From NCBI GenBank assembly GCA_963662275.1, contig OY759316.1:3552001-3616000 (forward strand): 64,000 nucleotides of DNA, read 5' to 3'. Below the pieces are notes generated by a model, which had not been told where the DNA came from, did no database searches, and worked only from the letters and a program-made list of their open reading frames with translations. This document shows positions 1-63,049 of this stretch, one piece after another. This stretch comes from Candidatus Cloacimonadales bacterium. GTDB taxonomy: Bacteria > Cloacimonadota > Cloacimonadia > Cloacimonadales > DAONDQ01. The position numbers were made by a program, and so were the translations under genes. Each line of letters begins with the position of its first letter. Positions within the stretch are counted from its first letter, which is position 1.

Positions 1-819
1 ATGCATGATATCCCTGGCAACGGTATGATCTTTATCCTCATTCCTGAGAATATCATAAATAATGAGGACACCGATGATATGATCCAAATTATCACGATAT
101 ACAGGGTAGCGTGTATATCCCTGCTCCCTGGCAAATACTTCCACATCATGAAGAAGTGTATCTTCATGGATAGCTATGACATCCATCCTGGGTACCATGA
201 TATTCTTCGCTTTTTGTTCATTAAACTCCAGCGCATCTTCCAACATATTCCGCTGTGGTTGAGCCAGGTCTTCATCTTCGGAAGTCTGGGAAAGAATGAA
301 AGCCAGATCGTCTTTTGTAATATAAGAGAAACCGGGCATGGCTTGAATTTGAAATACTTTAAAAAACAGATTTGTAAAAGAAGTAACAATTAAAACTATT
401 GGTTTTAAGATAATATAGAAAAATCTGAGAATAGGAAACAAGATCGGAACAAGTTTGTTGGGATAGTCACGAAAAATTGCCTTTGGTAGAATCTCACCAA
501 AAACAAGAATAATCCCAGCCATGGCTAACGAAGATATCTTGGGATCAATGATATGATTAGGTATTTTTTCCTGTACAACATAGGTTGTGATAGAAGCGAT
601 AACGATACTGGCAACGTTATTTCCTACCAAGGTTGTTCCGAAGAATCGGTCAGGTGATTCAATAAAGTGAAGGAGTTTCTTTTTTCGAATACTATGCTTC
701 GCATCCTTCTCAAGTTGCAGACGATCAAGTGACATAATCCCTGTTTCAATTCCTGCAAAAAAGAAAGTTAATGATAGAAAAAAAAGGAGCATCAGTAACA
801 ATAAAAAAATACTGAGCAT
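1..819 (-). CDS. CNNM/hemolysin-family (DUF21 + CBS) membrane protein, 3' end outside window
   Basis: Not in the ORF track because there is no stop in the window. Manual translation from ATG at 819 (overlapping the prfA TAA) is open to position 1: MLSIFLLL..FFAGIETG..GTTLVGNNVA..FGEILPK..IMVPRMDV..GYTRYPVYRDNLDHIIGV, which are typical CNNM and CBS motifs. Confidence 0.9.
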   Translation of the reverse strand, partial: MLSIFLLLLMLLFFLSLTFFFAGIETGIMSLDRLQLEKDAKHSIRKKKLLHFIESPDRFFGTTLVGNNVASIVIASITTYVVQEKIPNHIIDPKISSLAMAGIILVFGEILPKAIFRDYPNKLVPILFPILRFFYIILKPIVLIVTSFTNLFFKVFQIQAMPGFSYITKDDLAFILSQTSEDEDLAQPQRNMLEDALEFNEQKAKNIMVPRMDVIAIHEDTLLHDVEVFAREQGYTRYPVYRDNLDHIIGVLIIYDILRNEDKDHTVARDIMH

Positions 820-1895
820 TAAGCGTTAACCTTCTCCTCTCTGTAAGCTGCACGTAAAGCCGTTATGAATTCATCCAATTCACCATGTAATAAACCATCA
901 ATGTTATATGTTGTCAAGTTGATCCTATGATCTGTTACCCGTGATTGGGGAAAATTATACGTCCTAATTTTGGCTGATCTGTCCCCTGTGCCTACCTGGG
1001 ACTTGCGACTACTCGCAATTTCTGCTTCCTGTTTTGAGATTTCCATATCTAGTAAACGGGAGCGTAGAACATTCATCGCTTTATCTTTATTCTTTAATTG
1101 TGATTTCTCATCCTGGCAAGTGACTACAATTCCAGTAGGAATATGCGTAATCCGAACTGCTGAATCAGTTGTATTGACACTTTGTCCACCATTCCCTGAA
1201 GAACGGAAAACATCGATTCTGATTTCATTGTCCTTGATATCTATATCTACTTCATCTGCTTCAGGTAAAACAGCAACAGATACAGCAGAAGTATGAATTC
1301 TTCCACCTGCTTCCGTTTGCGGAACACGTTGCACACGATGAACACCGCTTTCGAAACGCATTGTTCCATACACATTATTTCCGCTAAGTAGAAATACGAT
1401 TTCCTTGAATCCACCTAAACCTGTTTCATTCATATCAAGAATCCGGAGTTTCCATTTCATTCTTTCGGCATAATACGAGTACATCCTGAATAATTCAGAG
1501 GCAAAAAGCGCAGCTTCTTCTCCCCCCGTTCCAGCTCGAATTTCAATAATGGCATTCTTCGCATCATTCGGGTCTGTCGGAACCAATAGATCATTTAATT
1601 CAGATTCAAGAGCATCCATTTGTTGAGTTAAGTCATTCTTTTCTTCTTCAAACATTTGGCGAAGCTCAGAATCTGATTCCTTATGCAGCATTTCATCACA
1701 TTCTGTAAACTGTTGTGAGACGGAACGATATTGATTATAACTATGGAAGATGGCAGATAAATCCTTAAAACGACGGGATATGTCTCGATACATCTTAGGA
1801 TCAGATAATATTTTGGAATCAGACATCTTGGTCTGCAATTGCTCAAATTCAAATTCCAGTTCTTTTAATTTTTCAACAGGTAGCATACGATTCAT
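819..1895 (-). CDS. prfA: peptide chain release factor 1
   Basis: GGQ motif (SSGNGGQSVNTTDSAVR), PxT motif (RVPQTE), ESGVHRVQRVP, IRTYNFPQSRVTDHRI. Confidence 0.97.
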   Translation of the reverse strand: MNRMLPVEKLKELEFEFEQLQTKMSDSKILSDPKMYRDISRRFKDLSAIFHSYNQYRSVSQQFTECDEMLHKESDSELRQMFEEEKNDLTQQMDALESELNDLLVPTDPNDAKNAIIEIRAGTGGEEAALFASELFRMYSYYAERMKWKLRILDMNETGLGGFKEIVFLLSGNNVYGTMRFESGVHRVQRVPQTEAGGRIHTSAVSVAVLPEADEVDIDIKDNEIRIDVFRSSGNGGQSVNTTDSAVRITHIPTGIVVTCQDEKSQLKNKDKAMNVLRSRLLDMEISKQEAEIASSRKSQVGTGDRSAKIRTYNFPQSRVTDHRINLTTYNIDGLLHGELDEFITALRAAYREEKVNA

Positions 1896-2896
1896 TATTC
1901 CTTATGTTTTTCTGATGCAATATTGGAGATATCCACAACGTTTGTATATTCGGAAATATCCATATCCAGGGCAGCTTTCATAGCAATCATCGCTACTTCC
2001 ACCATCTCATCATCCGGAGGTTGAGTGGTAATCCGCTGCAAAGCCATACCCGGAATAATCATTATTTTCACTAGAGGATGATGTACATTCTTACCTGATA
2101 GTTTCAGAATTTCATAGGAAATGCCTGAAACAAGGGGAATCAATAGAAAATGGTAACCGAGACGCAAAGCCCAATGCGGTGGATGATGTAAGATCAATGT
2201 AGCAACCAGCGTATCTACTATCGAGAAGAAAAGTATCGCTACCAGTAGGACAAAGACCATGAAGCTAGTACCACATCTGGGATGTAATGTCGAAAACTTC
2301 TGTATATGAGCAGTATCCAATTCGGAATCCTGTTCATACGCATGAACATTTTTATGCTCTGCACCATGATATTGAAATACTCTATGCACATCTTTCAGCC
2401 GACTGATGATCCAAACATAGATTACAAAGAAAATAATTCGAATCAAACCGGCAAAGAGATTAAAGCCAAGGTTATTCTTTGAAAGATTAACCCAGTCAGC
2501 TACCTTATATGGTAAAATACCAAATAGCAGAAATGCCAAGCCAAAAGCGATGAAATATGAGAAAATGGTTTCCACCTGGTTTCTCACATTCGATTTTTCC
2601 TTAAACTTCTCATTCTTGTTCTTTTCATCTTCTTTAAGATCTAGTTCATAACGTTCTGCTGAGAATGATAATGTTCGAAAGCCAATGATCATCATTTCAA
2701 TCAAAGAGACAAATCCCCTGATGATCGGAACTCCCATCCATTTTATTGTTTGAGTAACGCTTATAAAAGGTTCTTTTTTCAGCTCGATTGTCTTATCAAC
2801 TCTTCTTATTGCGGTTGCCAAATGTTCCGGACCACGCATCATAACACCTTCAATTACTGCTTGTCCACCTACATTTATCTGTTTCTTTTCGCTCAT
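1895..2896 (-). CDS. DUF1385 membrane protein
   Basis: VGGQAVIEGVMMR, FQYHGAEHK and HPRCGTSF motifs. Usual rpmE-DUF1385-prfA context. Start moved to MSEKK (2896) because the longer ORF runs through the rpmE terminator. Confidence 0.92.
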   Translation of the reverse strand: MSEKKQINVGGQAVIEGVMMRGPEHLATAIRRVDKTIELKKEPFISVTQTIKWMGVPIIRGFVSLIEMMIIGFRTLSFSAERYELDLKEDEKNKNEKFKEKSNVRNQVETIFSYFIAFGLAFLLFGILPYKVADWVNLSKNNLGFNLFAGLIRIIFFVIYVWIISRLKDVHRVFQYHGAEHKNVHAYEQDSELDTAHIQKFSTLHPRCGTSFMVFVLLVAILFFSIVDTLVATLILHHPPHWALRLGYHFLLIPLVSGISYEILKLSGKNVHHPLVKIMIIPGMALQRITTQPPDDEMVEVAMIAMKAALDMDISEYTNVVDISNIASEKHKE

Positions 2897-2920
2897 TCCG
2901 CTTCCTTTATTAAATGCATA

Positions 2921-2957
2921 AAAAAAGCACCACAAGCCTTTCCAAGCATTGTGGTGC
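2921..2957 (-). terminator. Rho-independent terminator after rpmE
   Basis: Stem GCACCACAA/TTGTGGTGC followed by a U-run on the minus strand. Confidence 0.75.
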
Positions 2958-2971
2958 AAAAGATTGAGTAT

Positions 2972-3184
2972 CTATTCTTCCGTGCTTTTACGATTATATT
3001 TTTTATTGAATTTTTCAACACGTCCAGCAGTATCCAGGAGTTTTTGTTTTCCTGTATAGAATGGGTGACATGCATTGCAGATATCAATATTGAGTTTTTC
3101 TTTCGTGGAACTGGTTTCAAATTCATTTCCACATGCACATTTAACTTGTACTTTCTCGTATTTGGGATGTATACCTTGTTTCAT
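2972..3184 (-). CDS. rpmE: 50S ribosomal protein L31 (Zn-binding type)
   Basis: [34 protein letters not shown]. Confidence 0.97.
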
Positions 3185-3368: not shown

Positions 3369-4670
3369 TTATCTGTTTACCATTCCATCATAGAGCGGAA
3401 AGCGAGCTGTCAATTGGCGAACTTCCATCTTGATCTGTGCTAAAACTTCTTCATTGTCATGATGATCAAAAGCCCGTTTAATAAATTCTGCAATCACTTC
3501 CATTTCCGGTTCCTTCATCCCACGTGTCGTGACGGATGGAGTTCCAATTCGAACTCCCGATGCCACAAAAGGTGAACGAGTATCGAAAGGTACTGTGTTT
3601 TTATTAACTGTGATACCGGCAATATCCAGAGTCTCTTCCATTTTCTTTCCGGAAGGACTGCCTGATTCTTCAGGACCAAGATCAATAAGCATCAAATGAG
3701 TATCAGTACCACCAGATACTAGCCTGAAACCATTTTTCGTTAGTGATTTAGCCAAATGATTCGCATTGTCAAGCACCTGTTGCTGATATACTTTAAAATC
3801 AGGAGATAATGCTTCCTTGAAGGCAACTGCCTTGGCTGCGATGATATGCATCAAAGGACCACCCTGTATACCTGGAAATACGTTCTGGTCAACAGTTTTG
3901 GCAAATTCTTCCTTACAAAGGATCAATCCGGCACGTGGACCACGTAATGTCTTATGTGTAGTCGTTGTAACGACATCGGCATAAGGAACAGGATTTGGAT
4001 GTAAGCCGGCTGCAACAAGACCTGCAATATGAGCCATATCAACCATGAATTTTGCTCCAACTTCATTTGCAATTTCCCTGAATTTTTTAAAATCAATCGT
4101 ACGCGGATATGCACTGGCACCTGTTAAAATTAGTTGCGGTTTATGTTCATGGGCTAATTTACGAATGACATCATAATCAAATTGTTCAGTCTTCGGATCA
4201 ACACCATAGTGGATAATGTTGTATAATTGTCCGGAAAAGCTAAGCGGATGTCCGTGGGTCAAGTGACCTCCATGTGCTAATTCCAATGATAAAACAGTAT
4301 CTCCTGGTTTGACAAGACTGAAATAGGCTGCCATATTTGCCTGTGAACCAGCATGAGGCTGGACATTTGCATGATCGGCACCGAATAATTCCTTCGCTCT
4401 TTCGATTGCGAGTCTTTCGACAACATCAATGAATTCACAACCTCCATAATAGCGACCATAAAGATCATAATTAATTTTACCAGTTTTCTTGCTCCAACGA
4501 TATGGATAACCTTCAGCGTACTTGTTTGTTAGAACAGAACCTTGGGCTTCCAGGACAGCACGGGAAGTGAAATTCTCTGACGCAATGAGTTCTAGATTTT
4601 CAATTTCTCTGACCAACTCATTTTGCATGGCTTCGTAAAGCTCTGGATCAATTGCTTTAATATAGCTCAT
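3369..4670 (-). CDS. glyA: serine hydroxymethyltransferase
   Basis: [37 protein letters not shown] (PLP lysine), [10 protein letters not shown]. Confidence 0.97.
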
Positions 4671-25675: not shown

Positions 25676-26119
25676 TCAATTAGTGATTGTCGTTGTTAAT
25701 GGGCTTGCAGCAGAAGCTGTAACGGTTACAACGGCTTTAACCAAAACACCGGCTTTCGTCTTTTCTGTTCCCTCACCTGTAATTGTGATTACGGTTGAGC
25801 TGGTATAACCAAGAGTAAACGTACCTGTATCATCTGTTAAAGTACCATCATCTGCAAAACCCATAGCAATACCAACACCTGCTTTTGCAGCAGTTATGTT
25901 AGCACCGAAACCAACGGTTCCGGATCCGCCACCGCCACCCTGGCTTGCAGGAGTCTTGTAATACTGCATGGCAGCAGCGCCAAAGTTCTGAAGTTCACCG
26001 ACCAGAGCCTGGCGGTTTGAGTTCGTGGCTTGTGTGGCAAACATTGTGATACCGACTGCGACGGCGACGCCAACGATGATAACGCTAAGTACGATCAAGA
26101 GTATTTGTTGTGTTCCCAT
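25676..26119 (-). CDS. major pilin-like protein (paralog 3)
   Basis: MGTQQILLIVLSVIIVGVAVAVG hydrophobic N-terminal helix, 147 aa, upstream AGGAG RBS. Confidence 0.8.
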   Translation of the reverse strand: MGTQQILLIVLSVIIVGVAVAVGITMFATQATNSNRQALVGELQNFGAAAMQYYKTPASQGGGGGSGTVGFGANITAAKAGVGIAMGFADDGTLTDDTGTFTLGYTSSTVITITGEGTEKTKAGVLVKAVVTVTASAASPLTTTITN

Positions 26120-26144
26120 TTTTGTTTCTCCTTTCCTTGTTGTT

Positions 26145-26588
26145 TTATTTGATTATGGCTGTTGCTAATGGACTTGCTGCAGTTGCTGTTACTGTAACTT
26201 TCGCTTTTACTAGTTCACCGGCTTTTGTCTTTTCTGTTCCCTCACCTGTAATATCAATAGTATCTGAATCTGTATAACCAAGTGTGAAGGTTCCTGTGTC
26301 ATCAGTTAATGTGCCAGCGGCTAAAAATCCCATGGCAACACCAACCCCTAATTTTGCAGCAGCTAAGTTAGCTCCGAAACCGACTGTTCCCGTTCCGCCA
26401 CCACCGCCTTGGCTGACTGGAGTCTTGTAATATTGCATGGCTGCTGCACCGAAGTTTTGAAGTTCACCGACCAGAGCCTGGCGGTTGGAATTCGTTGCCT
26501 GGGTCGCAAACATTGTAATACCGACAGCGACAGCGACACCAACGATGATCACACTAAGTACGATAAGTAGAATTTGTTGTGTTCCCAT
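26145..26588 (-). CDS. major pilin-like protein (paralog 2)
   Basis: Same N-terminus as its neighbours, 147 aa, AGGAG RBS. Confidence 0.8.
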   Translation of the reverse strand: MGTQQILLIVLSVIIVGVAVAVGITMFATQATNSNRQALVGELQNFGAAAMQYYKTPVSQGGGGGTGTVGFGANLAAAKLGVGVAMGFLAAGTLTDDTGTFTLGYTDSDTIDITGEGTEKTKAGELVKAKVTVTATAASPLATAIIK

Positions 26589-26613
26589 TTTGTTTCTCCT
26601 TCTTTAAGTTTGG

Positions 26614-27057
26614 TTATTTTAGGATAGTTGTTGCCAACGGATTAGCATTAGTTGCAGTGATCGTCATCCTTGCAGATACAAATTCATTTGCCTTGGTTTT
26701 TTCTGTGCCCACACCTGTAATGGTCACTACGGTGGCACTGGTCCAACCAAGAGTAAAGACACCTGTGTCATCTGTTAAAGTACCTGCAGCAGCATCAAAG
26801 CCCATAGCCACTCCTACGCCTGCTTTTGCACCTGCAAGATCAGCACCGAATCCGGGAGTACCGGCTCCACCACCACCTAAACTTGATGGTGTTTTGTAAT
26901 ACTGAATTGCAGCAGCACCAAAGTTCTGAAGTTCGCTTACCACAGCTTGTCTGTTCGAGTTCGTCGCTTGTGTAGCAAACATCGATATACCCACAGCGAC
27001 CGCAACACCAACGATGATCACACTTAGTACAATCAGAAGTATTTGTTGTGTTCCCAT
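26614..27057 (-). CDS. major pilin-like protein (paralog 1)
   Basis: Start reassigned to MGTQQ at 27057 (AAGGAG RBS), which gives 147 aa like the paralogs. Confidence 0.8.
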   Translation of the reverse strand: MGTQQILLIVLSVIIVGVAVAVGISMFATQATNSNRQAVVSELQNFGAAAIQYYKTPSSLGGGGAGTPGFGADLAGAKAGVGVAMGFDAAAGTLTDDTGVFTLGWTSATVVTITGVGTEKTKANEFVSARMTITATNANPLATTILK

Positions 27058-27159
27058 TTTAAGCTCCTTTGTTTGTTTTTGTGAAACATTAAGATCTAAA
27101 TTTTTTAGATCTGCCAAAATTTTATCAATCACACTATGGAAGAATCATCAACCTATAAC

Positions 27160-27609: not shown

Positions 27610-28713
27610 TCATGGAACAATCCGGCAAATGCGGAAACCAGTACAATCACCGACGTAAGTAGGGTCGTTACTGTTCCGGTATGAAACAACACACATGTCG
27701 TAAGTTGTGAACCAGCAGCCACCGCGACGTATACGCCGAGCATCACTAACAGCACCATGGGGATTATTTTGTGCACCGCTTGCATAAGTACCATTGATGT
27801 CCCAATTCCACTCCCAGACGTTACCGCTCATATCATACAGCCCCAATTCGTTAGCTGCTAAGGTACCGACTGTGTGAGATGTGCCACAGTTGTACCAAGC
27901 GACAAGTCCGATAGTATTACTTCCACTATAAGTGTAATTGTGGGTCAAATTACCACCCATTGCTGCAAATTCCCATTCCGCTTCTGTGGGAAGACGATAA
28001 CCATTGGCTGTCCAAGAGCAGGATATATTGACGTGATTATTATCATTTACATTCCAACCCGCTGGCCAAGTGTCTGGATTAGTGCCATAAGTGCTGTAAG
28101 TGTAGCAAGGTGTCAGACCTTCACTAATGCTGCGTCTATTGCAATATTCGATAGCATAATACCAAGACACATAATTAACTGGGTAATTCGCACCAACTCC
28201 GTAACCATGAGAAGGATTCGATCCCATTACTAACGAATCCGCAGACTGTGTAATTTCAAATTTATCAATGTAAAACGACGATACAGTAACATCTGAAGTG
28301 CCATTGTTAAGTGTTCCACGTTCTACGAATACAAAATTATCTGGAATTTCTATTGATACAGTCATTATTCTGTAAAAATGATAAAATCCTTGTATATAAC
28401 TTGTCCAATTAATGGTTCCTTCTGTCTTTGTGAAACTACCCTCTGAGGAAACATTTGTGAAAGATACTGAGCTTATGGAATCGGAACCTTCCACTATATA
28501 ACTTCCAGCATAAGGGACTTCAGTCCAGGAAATAATTAGAGAATCACCAGTTACTTGAATTGAAACATCATCAGGTGGATTTACATCAAAGCTATCCCTT
28601 TCACTAAAATATGCTAATTGTGTGTGAGTACTGCTTTGAGCATAATCAGGGCTGGTACCACATAATCCAATAATTACAAAACAAAATAGTGAAACTAGTA
28701 TTGTTGTTTTCAT
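27610..28713 (-). CDS. secreted FGE-sulfatase (SUMF1/C-type lectin fold) domain protein
   Basis: Signal peptide, Fn3-like N-region, YPVNYVSWYYAIEYCN, GYRLPTEAEWEFAAMGG, ANELGLYDMSGNVWEW, RGGCW..GFRICR. Confidence 0.88.
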   Translation of the reverse strand: MKTTILVSLFCFVIIGLCGTSPDYAQSSTHTQLAYFSERDSFDVNPPDDVSIQVTGDSLIISWTEVPYAGSYIVEGSDSISSVSFTNVSSEGSFTKTEGTINWTSYIQGFYHFYRIMTVSIEIPDNFVFVERGTLNNGTSDVTVSSFYIDKFEITQSADSLVMGSNPSHGYGVGANYPVNYVSWYYAIEYCNRRSISEGLTPCYTYSTYGTNPDTWPAGWNVNDNNHVNISCSWTANGYRLPTEAEWEFAAMGGNLTHNYTYSGSNTIGLVAWYNCGTSHTVGTLAANELGLYDMSGNVWEWNWDINGTYASGAQNNPHGAVSDARRIRRGGCWFTTYDMCVVSYRNSNDPTYVGDCTGFRICRIVP

Positions 28714-28988
28714 AATATACCTCCGTATATAATTTAGAGTATTTTCATGAAAAGCAAAATAACTTTTAATAATTGGAATTGAAGAAATATAGTGAACAAT
28801 ATTTCTAATTCACTTCAATTGCTGTAAAGAATGGGTAGAAGTTGATAGACAGTAGCTTATAGTATGAAGAAACATTGAGAGTACAGCGCTCCCATATTTT
28901 GAGCATAAGAGGGGGGATATTTTTACTCACATTTGAAAAGGATGCTTGATCAATCCCCCCTTGGGAAGGGGGGTAGGGGGGTCTTTTT

Positions 28989-29390
28989 TCAGAACAGTGT
29001 CTCCAATCCCAGACTCTTTTCCCGTGCAATTAACTTTTCTTGTAAATCTTCGAAAATACCACCTATGTTCTCCAAAACATCATGATGTGCATATCTAATC
29101 ACTATTATCCCGAATTCTCTAAGCAACTCGCTACGTTTTCTGTCATAACTCTCTTTCTCTCCGTGACTATCACCATCAATTTCGATAGCAACCTTGAGTT
29201 TAGAGCAGTAAAAATCTACTATAAATGATGAAATTGGCTTTTGTTTTGTCCATTTATATCGGATTAGCTCCCTGTTAGATAAAATATTCGTCCACATTTT
29301 AATTTCATCTGGATTACCCGCTTTACGGTTTTCTCTTGCATATTGTTTCAAGATAGGATCATAAGGAAATATTCTATCTTTATTATGCAT
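28989..29390 (-). CDS. DUF559 (Vsr-like) endonuclease, copy 1
   Basis: ARENRK..EIKMW..KQKPISSFIVDFYC..IEIDGDSH..YDRKRSELL..GIIVIRY. Confidence 0.9.
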   Translation of the reverse strand: MHNKDRIFPYDPILKQYARENRKAGNPDEIKMWTNILSNRELIRYKWTKQKPISSFIVDFYCSKLKVAIEIDGDSHGEKESYDRKRSELLREFGIIVIRYAHHDVLENIGGIFEDLQEKLIAREKSLGLETLF

Positions 29391-29447
29391 TTACCCTCCA
29401 ATATTAGGTGCAAAGTATCTTTTCGACCCCCCTACCCCCCTTCTCAA

Positions 29448-29686
29448 GGGGGGATATTTTGCCGAAAAGGATGTTTGATCAATCCCCGCTTGAGAAGGGG
29501 GGATATTTTGCCGAAAAGGATGTTTGATCAATCCCCGCTTGAGAAGGGGGGGATATTTTGCCGAAAAGGATATTTATCAATCCCCGCTTGAGAAGGGGGG
29601 ATATTTTGCCGAAAAGGATGTTTGATCAATCCCCGCTTGAGAAGGGGGGATATTTTGCCGAAAAGGATGTTTGATCAATCCCCGCT
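29448..29686. repeat. 49-bp tandem repeat x5 (last partial) within spacer 1
   Basis: Unit GGGGGGATATTTTGCCGAAAAGGATGTTTGATCAATCCCCGCTTGAGAA, with 1-bp indel variants. Confidence 0.9.
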
Positions 29687-29761
29687 GTTAGCGTGATATA
29701 GAATGTACCACCTTGGGAATGATCAATCCCCCCTTGGGAAGGGGGGTAGGGGGGTCTTCTT

Positions 29762-30163
29762 TCAGAACTGTGTCTCCAATCCCAGACTCTTTTCCCGTTC
29801 AATTAACTTTTCTTGTAAATCTTCGAAAATACCACCTATATTCTCCAAAACATCATGATGTGCATATCTAATCACTATTATCCCGAATTCTCTAAGCAAC
29901 TCGCTACGTTTTCTGTCATAACTCTCTTTCTCTCCGTGGCTATCTCCATCAATTTCGATAGCAACCTTGAGTTTAGAGCAGTAAAAATCTACTATAAATG
30001 ATGAAATTGGCTTTTGTTTTGTCCATTTATATCGGATTAGCTCCCTGTTAGATAAAATATTCGTCCACATTTTAATTTCAGCCGGATTACCCGCTTTACG
30101 GTTTTCTCTTGCATATTGTTTCAAGATAGGATCATAAGGAAATATTCTTTCTTTATTATGCAT
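29762..30163 (-). CDS. DUF559 endonuclease, copy 2
   Basis: 133 aa, differs from copy 1 at only a few residues. Confidence 0.9.
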   Translation of the reverse strand: MHNKERIFPYDPILKQYARENRKAGNPAEIKMWTNILSNRELIRYKWTKQKPISSFIVDFYCSKLKVAIEIDGDSHGEKESYDRKRSELLREFGIIVIRYAHHDVLENIGGIFEDLQEKLIEREKSLGLETQF

Positions 30164-30356
30164 TTACCCTCCAATATTAGGTTGCAATGTATCTTTTCGA
30201 CCCCCCTACCCCCCTTCTCAAGGGGGGATATTTTTTGCTCCCACCTGGGAAGGATGTTTAATCAATCCCCCCTTGAGAAGAAGGATATTTTTTACTCCCA
30301 CCTGATACGATGTTTAATCAATCCCCCCTTGGGAAGGGGGGTAGGGGGGTCTTTTT

Positions 30357-30758
30357 TCAGAACAGTGTCTCCAATCCCAGACTCTTTTCCCGTGCAATTA
30401 ACTTTTCTTGTAAATCTTCGAAAATACCACCTATGTTCTCCAAAACATCATGATGTGCATATCTAATCACTATTATCCCGAATTCTCTAAGCAACTCGCT
30501 ACGTTTTCTGTCATAACTCTCTTTCTCTCCGTGACTATCACCATCAATTTCGATAGCAATCTTGAGTTTAGAGCAGTAAAAATCTACTATAAATGATGAA
30601 ATTGGTTTTTGTTTTGTCCATTTATATCGGATTAGCTCCCTGTTAGATAAAATATTCGTCCACATTTTGATTTCAGCCGGATTACCCGCTTTACGGTTTT
30701 CTCTTGCATATTGTTTCAAGATAGGATCATAAGGAAATATTCTTTCTTTATTATGCAT
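30357..30758 (-). CDS. DUF559 endonuclease, copy 3
   Basis: 133-aa near-identical paralog (KIAIE variant). Confidence 0.9.
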   Translation of the reverse strand: MHNKERIFPYDPILKQYARENRKAGNPAEIKMWTNILSNRELIRYKWTKQKPISSFIVDFYCSKLKIAIEIDGDSHGEKESYDRKRSELLREFGIIVIRYAHHDVLENIGGIFEDLQEKLIAREKSLGLETLF

Positions 30759-30944
30759 TTACCCTCCAATATTAGGTTGCAATGTATCTTTTCGACCCCC
30801 CTACCCCCCTTCTCAAGGGGGGATATTTTTTGCTCCCACCTGGGAAGGATGTTTAATCAATCCCCCCTGTTAGCTGAAATATAGAGTGTACCACCTTGGG
30901 AATGATCAATCCCCCCTTGAGAAGGGGGGTAGGGGGGTCTTTTT

Positions 30945-31346
30945 TCAGAACAGTGTCTCCAATCCCAGACTCTTTTCCCGTGCAATTAACTTTTCTTGTA
31001 AATCTTCGAAAATACCACCTATATTCTCCAAAACATCATGATGTGCATATCTAATCACTATTATCCCGAATTCTCTAAGCAACTCGCTACGTTTTCTGTC
31101 ATAACTCTCTTTCTCTCCGTGGCTATCTCCATCAATTTCGATAGCAACCTTGAGTTTAGAGCAGTAAAAATCTACTATAAATGATGAAATTGGCTTTTGT
31201 TTTGTCCATTTATATCGGATTAGCTCCCTGTTAGATAAAATATTCGTCCACATTTTAATTTCAGCCGGATTACCCGCTTTACGGTTTTCTCTTGCATATT
31301 GTTTCAAGATAGGATCATAAGGAAATATTCTATCTTTATTATGCAT
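30945..31346 (-). CDS. DUF559 endonuclease, copy 4
   Basis: 133-aa near-identical paralog. Confidence 0.9.
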   Translation of the reverse strand: MHNKDRIFPYDPILKQYARENRKAGNPAEIKMWTNILSNRELIRYKWTKQKPISSFIVDFYCSKLKVAIEIDGDSHGEKESYDRKRSELLREFGIIVIRYAHHDVLENIGGIFEDLQEKLIAREKSLGLETLF

Positions 31347-31912
31347 TTACCCTCCAATATTAGGTGCAAAGTATCTTTTCGACCCCCCTACCCCCCTTCT
31401 CAAGGGGGGATATTTTTTGCTCCCACCTGGGAAGGATGTTTAATCAATCCCCCCTTGAGAAGAAGGATATTTTTTACTCCCACCTGATACGATGTTTAAT
31501 CAATCCCCCCTTGAGAAGGGGGGTAGGGGGGTCTTTCAGAACTGTGTCTCCAATCCCAGACTCTTTTCCCGTGCAATTAACTTTTCTTGTAAATCTTCAA
31601 AAATACCACCTATGTTCTCCAAAACATCATGATGTGCATATCTAATCACTATTATCCCGAATTCTCTGGATATTTCGGAGTGAGAGAGCATAGTGTACGC
31701 TCCAACAGAGCCACGTCTTCGGAAAAATAGAGCCACCTAATTCGGAGATGAGAGCCACTCTTCTATTTTCAATAATTAATACAGGTAATATACAAAAAAA
31801 TAAGCTATAACTAATCTTTTTGCGACGGCTGCCGTGAAGTGAGGCCGTAGGCCGAGCGAAGCGGCAGCCGTCGCCGGGAAAGTTGTAGTACCATCCCAAG
31901 TATTAACTATCG

Positions 31913-32659
31913 TTATTCTTTCTTAATGCCATTGCGTTCTCTCATTGACACTTTACCATCGATAAAAATAGGATAGGAATCGTGTATAATCCGGTCAAGG
32001 ATGGCATCGGCAAGGGTTTCCTGACCAATCTTCTCATGCCATCCTCCGGTTCTGAACTGAGAACAGAAGATCGTTGATGAGTGCTGATGCCTCGCTTCGA
32101 TAATCTCCAAAAGATCTCTTGCCTCTTGTTCTCTGAGTGGTGTCAGCAGCCATTCATCAAGTATCAGCAGTTTGATCTGCTTGTATTGTTTTATGACTTT
32201 CTTAAAAATACCTTCACCTCTGGCAACTGCCAGGTCATCCAGCAATTCGGGAAGTCGTATATATCTGACAGGATAATAGTTCCGGCAGGCTGCTATCCCG
32301 AAAGCACAACCCAGCCAGGATTTCCCGTTTCCTGATGCTCCCATAATGATTATATTCCGATTTTCGCTGATGTAACTGCAGGTTGATAAACGGATAATCT
32401 CAGATCGATCCAGCTTTCTGTCATCATGATATTCTACGTCTTCAATACTTGCCTGGCTGAACTTCAAGTTTGCCTTCTTAATTAGCCTCTGCAGTCTGTT
32501 ATTTTTGCGTCTGGCCCATTCAGCATCTACGAGCAGACTGAAGCGTTCTTCGAAAAGCAAATCCTTAAATGCACCATCATGTAATTGCTGGCAGAAAGTA
32601 TCAGCCATAGCACTCAAATGCATCTCGTGAAGCTTATTGACTGTTGATTGGCTGATCAT
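31913..32659 (-). CDS. istB: IS21 helper ATPase IstB
   Basis: GASGNGKS Walker A, LLILDEW Walker B, LEIIEARH, ADAILDRIIH. Confidence 0.95.
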   Translation of the reverse strand: MISQSTVNKLHEMHLSAMADTFCQQLHDGAFKDLLFEERFSLLVDAEWARRKNNRLQRLIKKANLKFSQASIEDVEYHDDRKLDRSEIIRLSTCSYISENRNIIIMGASGNGKSWLGCAFGIAACRNYYPVRYIRLPELLDDLAVARGEGIFKKVIKQYKQIKLLILDEWLLTPLREQEARDLLEIIEARHQHSSTIFCSQFRTGGWHEKIGQETLADAILDRIIHDSYPIFIDGKVSMRERNGIKKE

Positions 32660-34200
32660 TTATTTTTCCTCCCGTAGTAGTCTGCACCTCTGGTAATACC
32701 AAAATCAGAAGCAGGATCATTCTTTGCAGTCTCTGCCGCATTATTGATCTTATCAAAACCCGTCTTGAGTATGGTTTGGATATTTTTATAACCGGGATTG
32801 GGTGTATAAGATAATGCCCTTTGACATGCACTTTCGAGCCTCTGCACAGAATACCTGTCAGCTGATTTCAGAAGTGCCATACAGGAACGGTATCCCTGCT
32901 GTTCAACACGATAGGATGCCAGAATAGACTTAATTACGATCATCGTATGTTCCCCTATTTCCTTTGCCCAGGAGATAAACCTCTCTGCATTCCATTCCTG
33001 ATATTTCTGATGCTGTTCAGGCATATGTTCAGGGAGTGTCTGATACTGACCGGGATGACCAAATTTCCTGACATGGGAAGCGATTCTGTTGGAGTTATAG
33101 AAAACCTCGACAACTCTGCTTGTGATGCGTACATCCACATAGTATTTTATGTATTCATAAGGAACCGAATAGTACATCTTATCCACGCTTATATGATAAT
33201 TGAACTGTACTGTTGCCTTTGACCAGGCAGCAAGCTCATATGGCGACAATGACAATGGAATAAGCATGGGCTGTTCTTCTGCCTGAAAGACACTTTCTCT
33301 GCTTCCTTCTTTCTTTTGAAAGGGCTTGGTATTGAACTCTCCCAGTTTTTCCCTGATTGACATATTGAGTTCATGAAGCGAAAAGAATGTCTGGTTTCGC
33401 AAGGCAGCAATGATCCAGGTTGAGATGACTCCAACTGTGCCTTCTGCACTGGGCTTATCCTTTGGTCTTCTAACTCTGGCAGGTATTACCGCAGTATCGT
33501 AATAAGCAGACATTTCTCCATAGGTTCTGTTGATAACGGGAGTATACCACGACACATGGTCAACTCCCGTCTTAAGATTATCAGGAACAAGTATTTTAGT
33601 AACTCCATTAAAGTACTTGAAGCTATTTATATGAGCCTGAATCCAGCTTTCCATATTCATGGAAAGAAAGGCTTCCACATAGGAATAACCACTGTACGGG
33701 AGGGTTGCTACAAAAACATAGGCTTTGATCGGTTCACCGGTAATGTTGTTTTTGATGGCGGCAGTCTGTCCAGCCCAGTCCACTTCCAGCTTTTCTCCTG
33801 GTTTGTGTTTTATTCGCATGGTTGCTTTTGTCTTTTGTGAGTAATCATGGTAATGTTTGCAAAATTGCGTATACTTGTAGGGAATAGCCTGATTATTCCT
33901 GCATCCCTCAGAGTATTCATGCCAGAGTAGCGACAGTGTTACACCACTCTTGGCAAGTTCCTTGTGTATGTGTTCATAATCAGGCATCTTCTGCGGGTTT
34001 GACGATAAGTAAGCCGGAAAGAGCTGCTCTTCGATCATCTCATTTGTTAATGTATCAGGAAGCGGCCATTCAAGGCTCTGGTCTGTTGCCCTTTGAATGA
34101 TCATCGACACGTTATTGCGGGAACAGGATAAACTCGCCGCTATGCCTCGTCTGCTTATTCCCTGGCTGTGTAAGCGAAGGATCTCTCGGTAATTGGTCAT
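32656..34200 (-). CDS. istA: IS21 transposase IstA
   Basis: N-terminal HTH (MTNYREILRL..SRRGIA), PGEKLEVDWAG, VPDNLKTGV, PKDKPSAE, YSVP. Start set at ATG 34200 with GGAGG RBS. Confidence 0.95.
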   Translation of the reverse strand: MTNYREILRLHSQGISRRGIAASLSCSRNNVSMIIQRATDQSLEWPLPDTLTNEMIEEQLFPAYLSSNPQKMPDYEHIHKELAKSGVTLSLLWHEYSEGCRNNQAIPYKYTQFCKHYHDYSQKTKATMRIKHKPGEKLEVDWAGQTAAIKNNITGEPIKAYVFVATLPYSGYSYVEAFLSMNMESWIQAHINSFKYFNGVTKILVPDNLKTGVDHVSWYTPVINRTYGEMSAYYDTAVIPARVRRPKDKPSAEGTVGVISTWIIAALRNQTFFSLHELNMSIREKLGEFNTKPFQKKEGSRESVFQAEEQPMLIPLSLSPYELAAWSKATVQFNYHISVDKMYYSVPYEYIKYYVDVRITSRVVEVFYNSNRIASHVRKFGHPGQYQTLPEHMPEQHQKYQEWNAERFISWAKEIGEHTMIVIKSILASYRVEQQGYRSCMALLKSADRYSVQRLESACQRALSYTPNPGYKNIQTILKTGFDKINNAAETAKNDPASDFGITRGADYYGRKNK

Positions 34201-34816
34201 TGCATTGACCTCCATGAATTGATTTACACTGATACAGTGCATTAATTCATGTTGGTTTTTTCTTTCAAAATAGCAAGGTGGCTCTATTTTAGCGAAGACG
34301 TGGCTCTAAAACTCCGTACAAGTGGCTCTCATTTAGAATATTATTCATTCTCTAAGCAACTCGCTACGTTTTCTGTCATAACTCTCTTTCTCTCCGTGGC
34401 TATCTCCATCAATTTCGATAGCAACCTTGAGTTTAGAGCAGTAAAAATCTACTATAAATGATGAAATTGGTTTTTGTTTTGTCCATTTATATCGGATTAG
34501 CTCCCTGTTAGATAAAATATTCGTCCACATCTTAATTTAAGCCGGATTACCCGCTTTACGGTTTTCTCTTGCATATTGTTTCAAGATAGGATCATAAGGA
34601 AATATTCTTTCTTTATTATGCATTTACCCTCCAATATTAGGTTGCAATGTATCTTTTCGACCCCCCTACCCCCCTTCTCAAGGGGGGATATTTTTTGCTC
34701 CCACCTGGGAAGGATGTTTAATCAATCCCCCCTTGAGAAGAAGGATATTTTTTACTCCCACCTGATACGATGTTTAATCAATCCCCCCTTGGGAAGGGGG
34801 GTAGGGGGGTCTTTTT

Positions 34817-35218
34817 TCAGAACAGTGTCTCCAATCCCAGACTCTTTTCCCGTGCAATTAACTTTTCTTGTAAATCTTCGAAAATACCACCTATGTTCTC
34901 CAAAACATCATGATGTGCATATCTAATCACTATTATCCCGAATTCTCTAAGCAACTCGCTACGTTTTCTGTCATAACTCTCTTTCTCTCCGTGACTATCA
35001 CCATCAATTTCGATAGCAACCTTGAGTTTAGAGCAGTAAAAATCTACTATAAATGATGAAATTGGCTTTTGTTTTGTCCATTTATATCGGATTAGCTCCC
35101 TGTTAGATAAAATATTCGTCCACATTTTAATTTCAGCCGGATTACCCGCTTTACGGTTTTCTCTTGCATATTGTTTCAAGATAGGATCATAAGGAAATAT
35201 TCTTTCTTTATTATGCAT
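34817..35218 (-). CDS. DUF559 endonuclease, copy 6
   Basis: 133-aa near-identical paralog. Confidence 0.9.
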   Translation of the reverse strand: MHNKERIFPYDPILKQYARENRKAGNPAEIKMWTNILSNRELIRYKWTKQKPISSFIVDFYCSKLKVAIEIDGDSHGEKESYDRKRSELLREFGIIVIRYAHHDVLENIGGIFEDLQEKLIAREKSLGLETLF

Positions 35219-35393
35219 TTACCCTCCAATATTAGGTGCAAAGTATCTTTTCGACCCCCCTACCCCCCTTCTCAAGGGGGGATATTTTGCCGAAAAGGAT
35301 GTTTGATCAATCCCCGCTGTTAGCGTGATATAGAATGTACCACCTTGGGAATGATCAATCCCCCCTTGGGAAGGGGGGTAGGGGGGTCTTCTT

Positions 35394-35795
35394 TCAGAAC
35401 TGTGTCTCCAATCCCAGACTCTTTTCCCGTTCAATTAACTTTTCTTGTAAATCTTCGAAAATACCACCTATATTCTCCAAAACATCATGATGTGCATATC
35501 TAATCACTATTATCCCGAATTCTCTAAGCAACTCGCTACGTTTTCTGTCATAACTCTCTTTCTCTCCGTGGCTATCTCCATCAATTTCGATAGCAACCTT
35601 GAGTTTAGAGCAGTAAAAATCTACTATAAATGATGAAATTGTTTTTTGTTTTGTCCATTTATATCGGATTAGCTCCCTGTTAGATAAAATATTCGTCCAC
35701 ATCTTAATTTAAGCCGGATTACCCGCTTTACGGTTTTCTCTTGCATATTGTTTCAAGATAGGATCATAAGGAAATATTCTTTCTTTATTATGCAT
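35394..35795 (-). pseudogene. DUF559 copy 7 with premature stop
   Basis: Same GAA>TAA change as copy 5, at 35709-35711. The remaining 102 codons are open from the next Met. Confidence 0.85.
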
Positions 35796-35857
35796 TTACC
35801 CTCCAATATTAGGTTGCAATGTATCTTTTCGACCCCCCTACCCCCCTTCTCAAGGGG

Positions 35858-36080
35858 GGATATTTTTTTACTCACACCTGATACGATGTTTAATCAATCC
35901 CCCCTTGAGAAGAAGGATATTTTTTACTCCCACCTGCTACGATGTTTAATCAATCCCCCCTTGAGAAGAAGGATATTTTTTACTCCCACCTGATACGATG
36001 TTTAATCAATCCCCCCTTGAGAAGAAGGATATTTTTTACTCCCACCTGATACGATGTTTAATCAATCCCCCCTTGAGAAG
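35858..36080. repeat. 56-bp tandem repeat x4 in terminal spacer
   Basis: GGATATTTTTTACTCCCACCTGATACGATGTTTAATCAATCCCCCCTTGAGAAGAA, period 56 (GATGTTT at 35941, 35997, 36053). Confidence 0.88.
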
Positions 36081-36113
36081 GGGGGTAGGGGGGTCAAATT
36101 CTGAATTTCGTAA

Positions 36114-37535
36114 CTACCCTCTATATTCTGAAGGATCGATCAAATAGTGAGAGAATTTCAGATACAGGTTCTGCCTGGGTATCTTTGATTGATCTGCGGC
36201 AAGAGAAATATTTCCATGGCAGCTCTTAAGAAGCTCTACCAGATATTCTTTTTCAAAGGATTGCTTAGCTTCCGGATAAGGTAACTGTGTTAAACGATTT
36301 AAAGACATTTCCTGTTCTTCAGCAAATATGTAGTCTGGTAAATCCTCTGGCACAAGAGCTGAATGTTCTGCCAGGATTACTGCATGTTCCAGGGTATTTC
36401 GCAACTCACGAATATTTCCTTCCCATTTTCTGGAATCGAGTATAGATAATACAGGTTTTGAGATGGTTAGCTGCTTCCCGTATTTCTGGCTGAATTCCTT
36501 CACAAATTCATGAGAAAGCAGTTTTATGTCTTCATGTCTTTCCCTGAGTGAAGGAATATGAATATTTATGATATTCAATCGATAATATAAGTCTTCCCGG
36601 AAATTACCATTGACGACTTCCTGTTTGATATCCTTGTTCGTAGCTGTAATGACACGTACATCAACATGAAAGTCCCTGTCTCCACCAACTTGACGAATCG
36701 CTCCCTTTTCCAGGGCTTTTAATAATTTGACTTGGAATGCCAAGCTTGTTTCCGTTATTTCATCCAGGAATAATGTGCCTCCGTTAGCTTCCATGAAGTA
36801 GCCCATTTTATCACGAACAGCATCTGTAAATGCACCTTTTTTATGACCAAAGAGCAAACTCTCTAGAAGTGTTTCTGATAAACTCCCACAATTGACTGCT
36901 ACAAATACTTGTTCCTTACGTTTACTATTCTGATGAATGAGTTCAGCAAATAATCCTTTGCCAACACCAGTTTCACCGGATATGAGAACGGTTGTATCTA
37001 AAGGAGCTATCTTCTGGACTTTATTAATGACAGATTGAATAGACAAGCTTGTCCCAATCACTCGTTGACCATCAAAGTTATCCTGCAGTAATCGATTTAA
37101 GCGGTCATTTTCCTCGACCAGCCATTGTGTTTTTAATATCTTCTTTACCATGAGATTGATCAATTCCAAGTTGCGAACAGGCTTCAAGATAAATTCATCT
37201 GCACCTAATTTCATGGCTTGAACTGCTGTTTCAATTGTAGCATGACCAGATATGACAATGACAGAGATGAAAGGCCATTGCATCTTGATCTGCTGAATCA
37301 GTTCCAAACCATTTTCACCGGGTAAAACCAAATCTGTCATGGCAATATGGAATCTTCTCAACTCTAGTTGCCTGAGTGCTTCCACGACTGTTAAAGCAGT
37401 AACTACTTCATAATCCTGGTACAACTGCATACTGAATAATTCCAAGGCATTCGGATCATCATCAACGATGAGAATCCTCGGTCTTACTTTATTGTTTTGG
37501 ATAACAGGTGTTGGTGATTCCTGGTTTTTTTTCAT
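36114..37535 (-). CDS. sigma54-dependent response regulator (NtrC/PilR family)
   Basis: Receiver domain, GETGVGK, ESLLFGHKKGAFTDA, GGTLFLDEI, FREDLYYRL, WEGNIREL, C-terminal HTH. Confidence 0.93.
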   Translation of the reverse strand: MKKNQESPTPVIQNNKVRPRILIVDDDPNALELFSMQLYQDYEVVTALTVVEALRQLELRRFHIAMTDLVLPGENGLELIQQIKMQWPFISVIVISGHATIETAVQAMKLGADEFILKPVRNLELINLMVKKILKTQWLVEENDRLNRLLQDNFDGQRVIGTSLSIQSVINKVQKIAPLDTTVLISGETGVGKGLFAELIHQNSKRKEQVFVAVNCGSLSETLLESLLFGHKKGAFTDAVRDKMGYFMEANGGTLFLDEITETSLAFQVKLLKALEKGAIRQVGGDRDFHVDVRVITATNKDIKQEVVNGNFREDLYYRLNIINIHIPSLRERHEDIKLLSHEFVKEFSQKYGKQLTISKPVLSILDSRKWEGNIRELRNTLEHAVILAEHSALVPEDLPDYIFAEEQEMSLNRLTQLPYPEAKQSFEKEYLVELLKSCHGNISLAADQSKIPRQNLYLKFSHYLIDPSEYRG

Positions 37536-63018: not shown

Positions 63019-63049
63019 ATCCCCCCTTGGGAAGGGGGGCAGGGGGGTC
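63019..63049. repeat. solo copy of the DUF559-array 31-bp repeat
   Basis: ATCCCCCCTTGGGAAGGGGGGCAGGGGGGTC, one mismatch to the array repeat. Confidence 0.9.

Follow-up and report, generated by a model that had tools for sequence, protein, structure and literature searches.

Seven tandem DUF559 cassettes and a dispersed, candidate triplex-forming repeat in a Candidatus Cloacimonadales genome

A tandem array of DUF559 genes and repeats

We analyzed a window of 64,000 nt from a Candidatus Cloacimonadales bacterium (contig OY759316.1 of assembly GCA_963662275.1), in which an array of DUF559 nuclease genes, each bracketed by copies of one 31-bp repeat, lies at 28953-36095. All coordinates are those of this window unless they are marked as genome coordinates. 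The source genome is complete, with 4.38 Mb in one contig and 39% G+C.

The array holds seven DUF559 units of 402 nt each, all on the minus strand, spanning 28989-35795. Copies 1 (28989-29390, 133 aa), 2 (29762-30163), 3 (30357-30758), 4 (30945-31346) and 6 (34817-35218) are intact. Copies 5 and 7 have a nonsense change in common, E29 to TAA; copy 7 (35394-35795) is a pseudogene that also has P52T, and copy 5 is additionally interrupted by an IS21-family insertion sequence (IS), which leaves a truncated 3' part of 132 nt (31536-31667) and a 5' part of 277 nt that includes the nonsense codon (34347-34623). The preliminary description of this DNA spoke of seven nearly identical tandem genes, which is correct for the number of units, but only 5/7 are intact, and the IS and the broken copies had been missed. 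The copies vary at 15/402 sites, 7 of them protein-changing, and the variation is mosaic, with no single tree that fits it, a pattern that by its sequence points to gene conversion among the copies.

The 31-mer (ATCCCCCCTTGAGAAGGGGGGTAGGGGGGTC) is present 15 times in the array with 0-1 mismatch, in strict +/- alternation, so the earlier observation that every gene is bracketed by this repeat is confirmed. Each gene has one 31-mer 5-6 nt past its stop codon (6 nt at copy 1) and another 34 nt ahead of its start (counted at copy 1), and the G-rich tails of both bracketing repeats point to the gene. Every spacer had been described as an inverted pair; this applies to seven of the eight, while the leftmost has only the right half, a 31-mer with hairpin and G tail on the plus strand (28953-28983), the left half of this doublet being degenerate (28909-28952). 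Each full spacer is a '-+' doublet with outward tails around 1-5 tandem units of 49 or 56 bp, and the hairpin is repeated in each unit. The inverted 31-mers enclose 4.9 tandem 49-bp units in spacer 1 (29425-29756), 2 units of 56 bp in spacer 2 (30199-30351) and 4 units of 56 bp in spacer 7 (35831-36095), which ends 18 nt from the stop codon of ntrC. Spacer 2 and spacer 5 (34659-34811) are identical in sequence, and spacer 6 (35253-35388) is related to spacer 1; spacer 4 is at 31381-31533. As single-stranded DNA, spacer 3 (30794-30939) folds into a single long hairpin at -44.2 kcal/mol (z -7.5), with 0/200 shuffles as good.

The IS in copy 5 (31668-34346, minus strand) is 2679 bp long, with a 7-bp target duplication, ATTCTCT, and genes for IstA (528 aa; istA, 32656-34242) and IstB (248 aa; istB, 31913-32659), both recognized by Pfam. 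There are 6 copies of it in the genome, and because 4 of them are 100% identical, the element has been active recently. Its transposase inside the array coordinates is an unrelated, later insertion. The statement that the array contains no REP-associated tyrosine transposase (RAYT, the enzyme of repetitive extragenic palindromes, or REPs) or other recombinase therefore stands as far as RAYTs are concerned, none of which adjoins the 31-mer, but had overlooked this transposase.

Terminator-like matches in the array number 9 versus 3.1 expected, and these correspond to the repeats when the strand that does not encode the genes is read. We noted that 31-mers 5' of genes at 29435-29453, 30209-30227, 30804-30822 and 31391-31409 (plus strand) are followed by a T run and score as intrinsic terminators; such repeats could block antisense read-in. 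A promoter scan of the array gave 7 promoter-like sites versus 8.4 expected, and we drew no regulatory conclusion from these or from the terminator-like matches; an Rfam scan of 28500-36500 (E up to 1) found nothing above the gathering score, with sub-threshold chance matches only (BsrG and microRNA models). The small same-strand genes and palindromes have the look of an integron cassette array with attC sites, a candidate that we set aside because every cassette has one and the same gene and the repeats occur all over the genome.

The repeat across the genome

Counted over the whole genome, as the preliminary description had proposed, the 31-mer has about 115 copies by blastn-short, 100 of them outside the array. 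When up to 4 mismatches are allowed, there are 112 copies, of which 42 are exact and 97 are outside the array; one lone copy with 2 mismatches is elsewhere in the window (63019-63049, plus strand). Outside the array we count 70 repeat loci: 21 '-+' doublets, 5 direct pairs, 44 single repeats and 0 '+-' pairs. The inner tandem units of the dispersed doublets vary between loci.

The repeat is not strictly extragenic, since 23/100 of the copies outside the array lie within open reading frames (ORFs) of at least 120 aa. These include both methylmalonyl-CoA mutase subunits, a DEAD-box helicase, Ppx/GppA, FecCD and a multi-copy FG-GAP protein. Compared with its counterpart in the sister species (same genus), ppx has 44 extra residues, an in-frame insertion made up of one 31-mer between inverted heptamer repeats. 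The whole heptamer-31-mer composite is read in frame, and the sister species has heptamer-coded residues at the same site. More generally, repeats of this family, which we call family A, are often flanked on both sides by short tandem repeats of heptamers or octamers that are inverted relative to each other (for instance of the CGAAGTA type; 4091250-4091450, genome coordinates). The FG-GAP gene encodes ~550 aa, with FG-GAP repeats and a Por secretion tail, and carries one in-frame family-A repeat. Its copies are at 515006-516652, 2539891-2541540, 2641152-2642798, 2891775-2893421, 2893637-2895295 and 3886831-3888567 (genome coordinates), and because the repeat lies inside a multi-copy gene, these family-A repeats have multiplied passively.

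The repeat as a candidate triplex motif

BoxC, PIT and TM repeats have been known since the 1990s and are found in hundreds of genomes; to our knowledge they have no assigned enzyme, origin or function. In family A, the blocks CCCCCCT, AGGGGGG and GGGGGGT are separated by loops of 5 and 2 nt and make up a C-run, a G-run and a mirror G-run. We compared these with the triplex block rules given in the excerpted text of Holder et al. 2015 (PMC4666352), namely a pyrimidine block, a complementary purine block and a mirror purine block, with a stem of at least 6 and short loops. Judged by this design, the 31-mer is a class II purine-motif intrastrand-triplex motif of the BoxC/PIT/TM kind, and it is not a classical REP of the RAYT type. 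Its hairpin part alone folds at -8.8 kcal/mol (z -1.6). The exact TM_ECO pattern, CCCTCNCCC-N3-6-GGGNGAGGG-N3-GGGNGAGGG, is absent from the genome (0 matches), which sets family A apart from TM_ECO proper despite their common design.

In E. coli K-12, one TM_ECO match is located 170 bp past the stop codon of the DUF559 gene ycjD, and the final codons of ycjD run through TM-like sequence. At this locus we also observed that part of the 3' end of ycjD is duplicated between the gene and the TM_ECO motif (3780-3907). The excerpted text of Holder et al. 2015 (PMC4666352) links TM motifs to rearrangement in E. coli and reports no transposase or integrase remnants near TM sites. The paper names no partner gene, and 'endonuclease' and 'ycjD' have 0 occurrences in it.

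The DUF559 protein

DUF559 is a very large family of unknown function. The array protein of 133 aa matches it (PF04480) over residues 15-120 with 88.1 bits (cut-off 20.6; E 4e-25). A sub-threshold match to MTES_1575, a restriction-endonuclease-like family, overlaps DUF559 at residues 44-120, and the match to NCBIfam NF007294 has 55 bits, under the equivalog cut-off of 218. Pfam found no N-terminal DNA-binding domain in the protein. PADLOC gave a weak local match to DpdF (E 3.8e-5, 19.6 bits), which we did not accept as a defence assignment.

The AlphaFold model of the protein has a pLDDT of 88.1, and Foldseek matched it to 3hrl (E 7.9e-7), a Neisseria DUF559 protein of unknown function, to 3r3p, the catalytic domain of the homing endonuclease I-Bth0305I (E 2.8e-4, with a TM-score of 0.77 by target length), and, weakly and at rank 24, to Vsr (1cw0, E 0.15). 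When a sequence profile was compared with solved structures, 3hrl was again found (E 7.6e-29), and beyond it only weak PvuRts1I-type matches (E up to 10). On the strength of the predicted model, the DUF559 protein is a nuclease of the Vsr/EDxHD fold. Residues D59, E70, D72, H76 and D83 are invariant in 12 sequences and are candidate catalytic positions.

Pairing of DUF559 genes with repeats

The source genome has three other DUF559 genes, at 1437032, at 3032606 and, as a pseudogene, at 2244266 (genome coordinates), which are ~40% identical to the array gene. All three lie between inverted copies of their own hairpin-and-tail repeat, so 4/4 of the DUF559 loci in this genome are paired. By blastn-short, the repeats of the genes at 1437032, 3032606 and 2244266 have 18, 1 and 2 full copies, respectively, and partial ones; the family with 18 full copies is family B, and families C and D have fewer. 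Judging from the repeats at each gene, the genome contains four distinct DUF559-repeat pairs in addition to at least 10 distinct RAYT-REP pairs. These RAYT-like genes are an observation of their own: 10/15 Y1_Tnp genes (IS200/RAYT-like) lie between distinct inverted repeats, REP-like and their own, which is an unusually rich REP-RAYT set for one genome. Because no Y1 gene adjoins the 31-mer and 10/15 have their own repeats, the two kinds of pair coexist unmixed.

The sister species has one homolog, 48% identical, which is bracketed by two doublets of a repeat variant (with ACC as its loop, and CAG instead of TAG) and adjoins glgP, a different locus. This homolog is the sister of the array gene on the protein tree described below (SH-aLRT, the Shimodaira-Hasegawa-like approximate likelihood ratio test, 81). 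There is no DUF559 gene at the glgP locus of the source genome; 3' of glgP (212690-212760, genome coordinates) we noted a lone family B/C-type repeat where the sister species has the cassette. A 27-nt core of the 31-mer has 115 matches in the source genome, 13 in the sister species and 0 in the other 39 genomes searched within the order. With a looser C-run triplex pattern, the counts are 220, 20 and, in the other genomes of the order, 3 or fewer; one of these few matches is 86 nt from the DUF559 match of its genome. In other families of the order, the homologs have other hairpin-and-tail repeats, also in inverted pairs.

For a wider comparison we collected 80 DUF559 loci from species-representative genomes of many phyla, 79 of which were scorable. 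The 300 nt upstream of the domain were aligned to the reverse complement of the 300 nt downstream, and random intervals of the same length from the same loci were the controls. The inverted-repeat score was at least 14 at 47/79 loci versus 6/474 control intervals, at least 18 at 35 loci versus 2 controls, and at least 25 at 16 versus 1. A pyrimidine-to-purine hairpin is present in 149/190 flanks (95 DUF559 loci), and a fully matching mirror block within 30 nt is found on the gene side of 96/149 hairpins versus the far side of 9/149. We placed four repeat classes on a quick maximum-likelihood protein tree (95 domains, 113 columns, many forks unresolved), where they need 26 changes versus a shuffled mean of 46.4, and none of 200 shuffles goes so low. 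A clade of 25 rows (SH-aLRT 91) includes 21 CCCCTCC-type loci from at least 8 phyla, and the phylum label changes 29 times on the tree.

Comparison of these sequences thus links DUF559 genes to triplex-hairpin repeats across phyla, with the G tail toward the gene and a repeat type that tracks the protein lineage. The preliminary description had proposed to look for both the enrichment of flanking repeats and their co-variation with protein phylogeny. It had called the locus a REP-nuclease unit in which a non-HUH nuclease stands in for the RAYT; the pairing is real and general by comparison, but the repeat is not a classical REP.

Cassettes are also found in frame inside genes: in hsdR between the nuclease and ATPase domains (6 loci), in hsdS, in two methylase genes, in three Type ISP genes and in valS. 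In a Gracilibacteria contig (2129-5035), we observed the DUF559 domain inside the catalytic domain of valyl-tRNA synthetase. A Pseudomonadales chromosome locus (465-3183) has a DUF559 gene between hsdS and hsdM; hsdS itself contains in-frame triplex-hairpin doublets near both termini and at its centre, the regions that separate its target-recognition domains. Repeat counts elsewhere include 8 within a single hsdS-hsdM locus in one genome, and 54 in another genome.

In the literature that we searched, judged from titles, abstracts and passages and with supplements outside its scope, we found no report of a link between DUF559 and repeats. The nearest published trace of the pairing in that material is in the excerpted text of Milman et al. 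2023 (PMC9881135), where 'DUF559 domain-containing protein' is 14-fold enriched among predicted targets of programmed inversion.

Origin of the array

The left neighbour of the array is a gene of the FGE-sulfatase family (27610-28713, minus strand; Pfam PF03781), and the right neighbour encodes an NtrC-type sigma-54 response regulator (36114-37535, minus strand). In the sister species, the distance from the ntrC ortholog (88% identical) to the next genes is 375 bp, and these are the pilin-like genes found to the left of the array in the source genome. The sister species thus has an empty site of the kind sought in the preliminary description, without the ~8.75 kb that comprise the FGE gene, the array and the IS between the pilin-like genes and ntrC. 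The two genomes are 64-72% identical in coding DNA, and the gene-less doublet loci that we chose had no clear ortholog in the sister species. The pilin-like paralogs themselves are three in tandem (25676-27132), of 147-172 aa with a common N-terminus, MGTQQILLIVLSVIIVGVAVAVG, and no Pfam match; the same pilin-like gene adjoins ntrC in the sister species.

The 503-bp cassette with its gene is found in this array and nowhere else in the genome. This confinement fits repeated unequal recombination and conversion, as do the identity of spacers 2 and 5, the nonsense codon common to copies 5 and 7 and the mosaic of variable sites. The seven copies are best read as the outcome of local unequal recombination and not of gene transposition, which is not required to account for them, and the proposal that the nuclease drives the amplification of its own gene is not supported. 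The array would have grown from one original cassette as its flanking doublets of 120-330 bp underwent unequal homologous recombination and gene conversion, and breaks at the repeats perhaps stimulate this recombination. The array would now be decaying, with one IS insertion and the common nonsense codon.

A proposed role for DUF559

We read the locus as a tandem of seven cassettes in which DUF559 is the cognate enzyme of its repeat family and which was multiplied by recombination; on balance we think this probable, if only just. In this role, DUF559 would bind to the module once it has folded into a hairpin or triplex, and would nick the DNA next to it. The repeats would thereby be maintained or spread in trans, much as REPs are by a RAYT, with an enzyme of another catalytic fold.

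A broader proposal, to which we would give slightly less than an even chance, is that DUF559 nucleases are the missing partner enzymes of BoxC/PIT/TM repeats from E. coli to cyanobacteria, a structure-reading second system that runs parallel to REP-RAYT. Nicking would then spread the repeats, put cassettes in frame within genes and cause the instability that has been reported at the motifs, and the array would be the outcome of a nuclease repeatedly breaking DNA at its own flanks.

Several points weigh against a partnership of this kind. We infer both the action of the nuclease on the repeat and the formation of a triplex from comparing sequences. Gene-less doublets have their tails outward, whereas the tails at a cassette point toward the gene, and because no '+-' remnant was found, the doublets are not simple products of cassette deletion. 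Among the loci from many phyla, 32/79 are under the inverted-repeat threshold, although several of them still have a one-sided motif. Kin share labels, so the tree and flank figures describe clustering and not independent events, and they overstate independence. Some of the ORF-internal copies of the 31-mer are parts of larger repeated genes and were therefore amplified passively. Dispersal is not constant, since two complete genomes have the repeat at the two cassette ends only (2 copies each). Finally, a Caulobacter DUF559 protein, VsrA, has been proposed to act in mismatch repair, according to the excerpted text of PMC12907096.

DUF559 could instead be a passenger gene, with the repeats spread by another enzyme or by slippage and recombination, the gene sitting at repeat pile-ups or as cargo, and the array formed by repeat-mediated unequal crossover. 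The repeats do bracket other genes in direct pairs (329665-330402 and 3968514-3969176, genome coordinates), copies are present inside many unrelated genes, the cassette itself is not dispersed, and the tandem units in the doublets are of the slippage type. We nevertheless consider a passenger unlikely, if worth keeping in mind. DUF559 is the one gene family found repeatedly between such repeats across many phyla, with a fixed orientation and a repeat type that matches its lineage, and four separate pairs are found in one genome. The lack of transposases and integrases near TM sites, in the excerpted text of Holder et al. 2015 cited above, also counts against this reading.

A classical homing endonuclease would cleave one defined unoccupied target, for example within hsdR, and break repair would copy the cassette into it; the repeats would serve tolerance or regulation and would not be the substrate. 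The nearest characterized relative by fold is indeed the homing endonuclease I-Bth0305I (excerpted text of PMC3239194 and PMC3384342), and the 6 in-frame hsdR cassettes lie at what seems to be the same place, between HSDR_N and the ATPase domain. We regard homing as a doubtful account and quite improbable, given that the 133-aa protein is without the N-terminal DNA-binding region of I-Bth0305I by Pfam and that the Rfam scan gave no intron, nor is there an intein. Homing also leaves the ~100 gene-less repeats, and the tracking of protein by repeat type, unexplained.

It is very unlikely that DUF559 is a repair enzyme, of the Vsr type that acts in very-short-patch (VSP) mismatch repair or another housekeeping nuclease, with only incidental repeats. 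The fold match to Vsr (1cw0, rank 24) and the proposed part of Caulobacter VsrA, with its DUF559 domain, in VSP repair (excerpted text of PMC12907096) speak for this possibility. However, the genome has only two C5-methyltransferase genes (PF00145), at 1.53 and 2.14 Mb, at least 95 kb from any DUF559 locus, and seven tandem copies with two pseudogenes, in-frame cassettes and a patchy distribution over phyla (the 29 label changes) are unlike a housekeeping gene.

We give hardly any weight to the 31-mer being an ordinary REP that is mobilized by a RAYT (Y1 HUH) of this genome. REPs of E. coli have GTAG beside the hairpin, and the 31-mer likewise holds GTAG next to its hairpin; there are also 15 Y1_Tnp matches in the genome. 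However, none of the 15 Y1 genes has a 31-mer closer than 2 kb, and none has a C-run triplex motif closer than 500 nt; the 10/15 with inverted repeats have different ones of their own, and the variant in the sister species reads GCAG, not GTAG. Just as remote is a programmed inversion switch, in which the inverted repeats would let the gene flip. The enrichment in the excerpted text of Milman et al. (PMC9881135) suggests it, but the same enrichment is expected for any gene between inverted repeats, all seven copies here have the same orientation, there is no invertase gene nearby, and the promoter counts given above show no promoter logic.

That the array is an assembly artefact, with truly one copy, has a negligible chance: no contig piece crosses the array in the public runs (n=4), nor any read, but the copies differ at 15 sites, the spacers vary in kind and length and one copy has an IS with its target duplication, which a collapsed-repeat artefact would not be expected to give. 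For the collapsed gene unitig, Logan contigs from public runs of two studies give a depth of 68.6 and 105.9 versus 11-30 for single-copy flanks, and the IS21 unitig (6 copies in the assembly) has 75.8 and 158.8; unitig depth is not copy number and gives rough support only, and the best-matching runs may be the source sample. Two joints in one run, whose sides of 27-33 letters fall within repeats, were set aside, and no RNA dataset was among the listed matches to this DNA.

If DUF559 is the partner enzyme, the pairing would explain both the BoxC/PIT/TM repeats and the DUF559 family. It would be a second, non-HUH solution to the problem that REP-RAYT solves, with a nuclease that may recognize non-B DNA structure. 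The genome is a good test bed in that it is complete and has four DUF559-repeat pairs (about 115, 18, 2 and 1 full copies), one of them with five intact gene copies, and its RAYT-REP pairs, at least 10 in number, provide an internal contrast.

Comparison with known systems

Rickettsia palindromic elements are short palindromic repeats that enter protein-coding genes without breaking the reading frame; their sequence design differs from that of the 31-mer, and we know of no enzyme for them. Vsr and Caulobacter VsrA are like the array protein in fold and, for the DUF559 domain, in sequence family (excerpted text of PMC12907096). Unlike these, the DUF559 genes described here have no cytosine methyltransferase partner nearby, and they have a cassette structure, pseudogenes and a patchy distribution.

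With the EDxHD homing endonuclease I-Bth0305I, as described in the excerpted text of Taylor et al. 2011 (PMC3239194), DUF559 shares the catalytic fold by prediction, probably the conserved acidic and His residues, and what may be a selfish lifestyle. In contrast to I-Bth0305I, it has no N-terminal DNA-binding domain (NUMOD motifs) and no intron or intein host, and it comes with flanking repeats and many gene-less repeats.

The closest design to the repeat is that of BoxC, PIT and TM_ECO, which, in the excerpted text of PMC4666352, also have a C block, a loop, a G block, a short loop and a mirror G block. They are likewise intergenic, often in inverted pairs, present in many copies and linked to rearrangement, and BoxC/PIT/TM repeats are very abundant in cyanobacteria. 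Family A differs from TM_ECO in its plain C6/G6 blocks and its 2-nt second loop.

Compared with REP/REPIN-RAYT systems, DUF559 has a Vsr/EDxHD (PD-(D/E)XK-like) fold by prediction and not HUH, the repeat has a mirror G tail, there are in-frame copies within genes, and the gene is amplified in tandem here; the DUF559 system is known from sequence. The two are alike in having one gene per repeat family, which lies between inverted copies of its own repeat and is usually single-copy, dispersed inverted doublets that fold as long hairpins, and several such pairs per genome.

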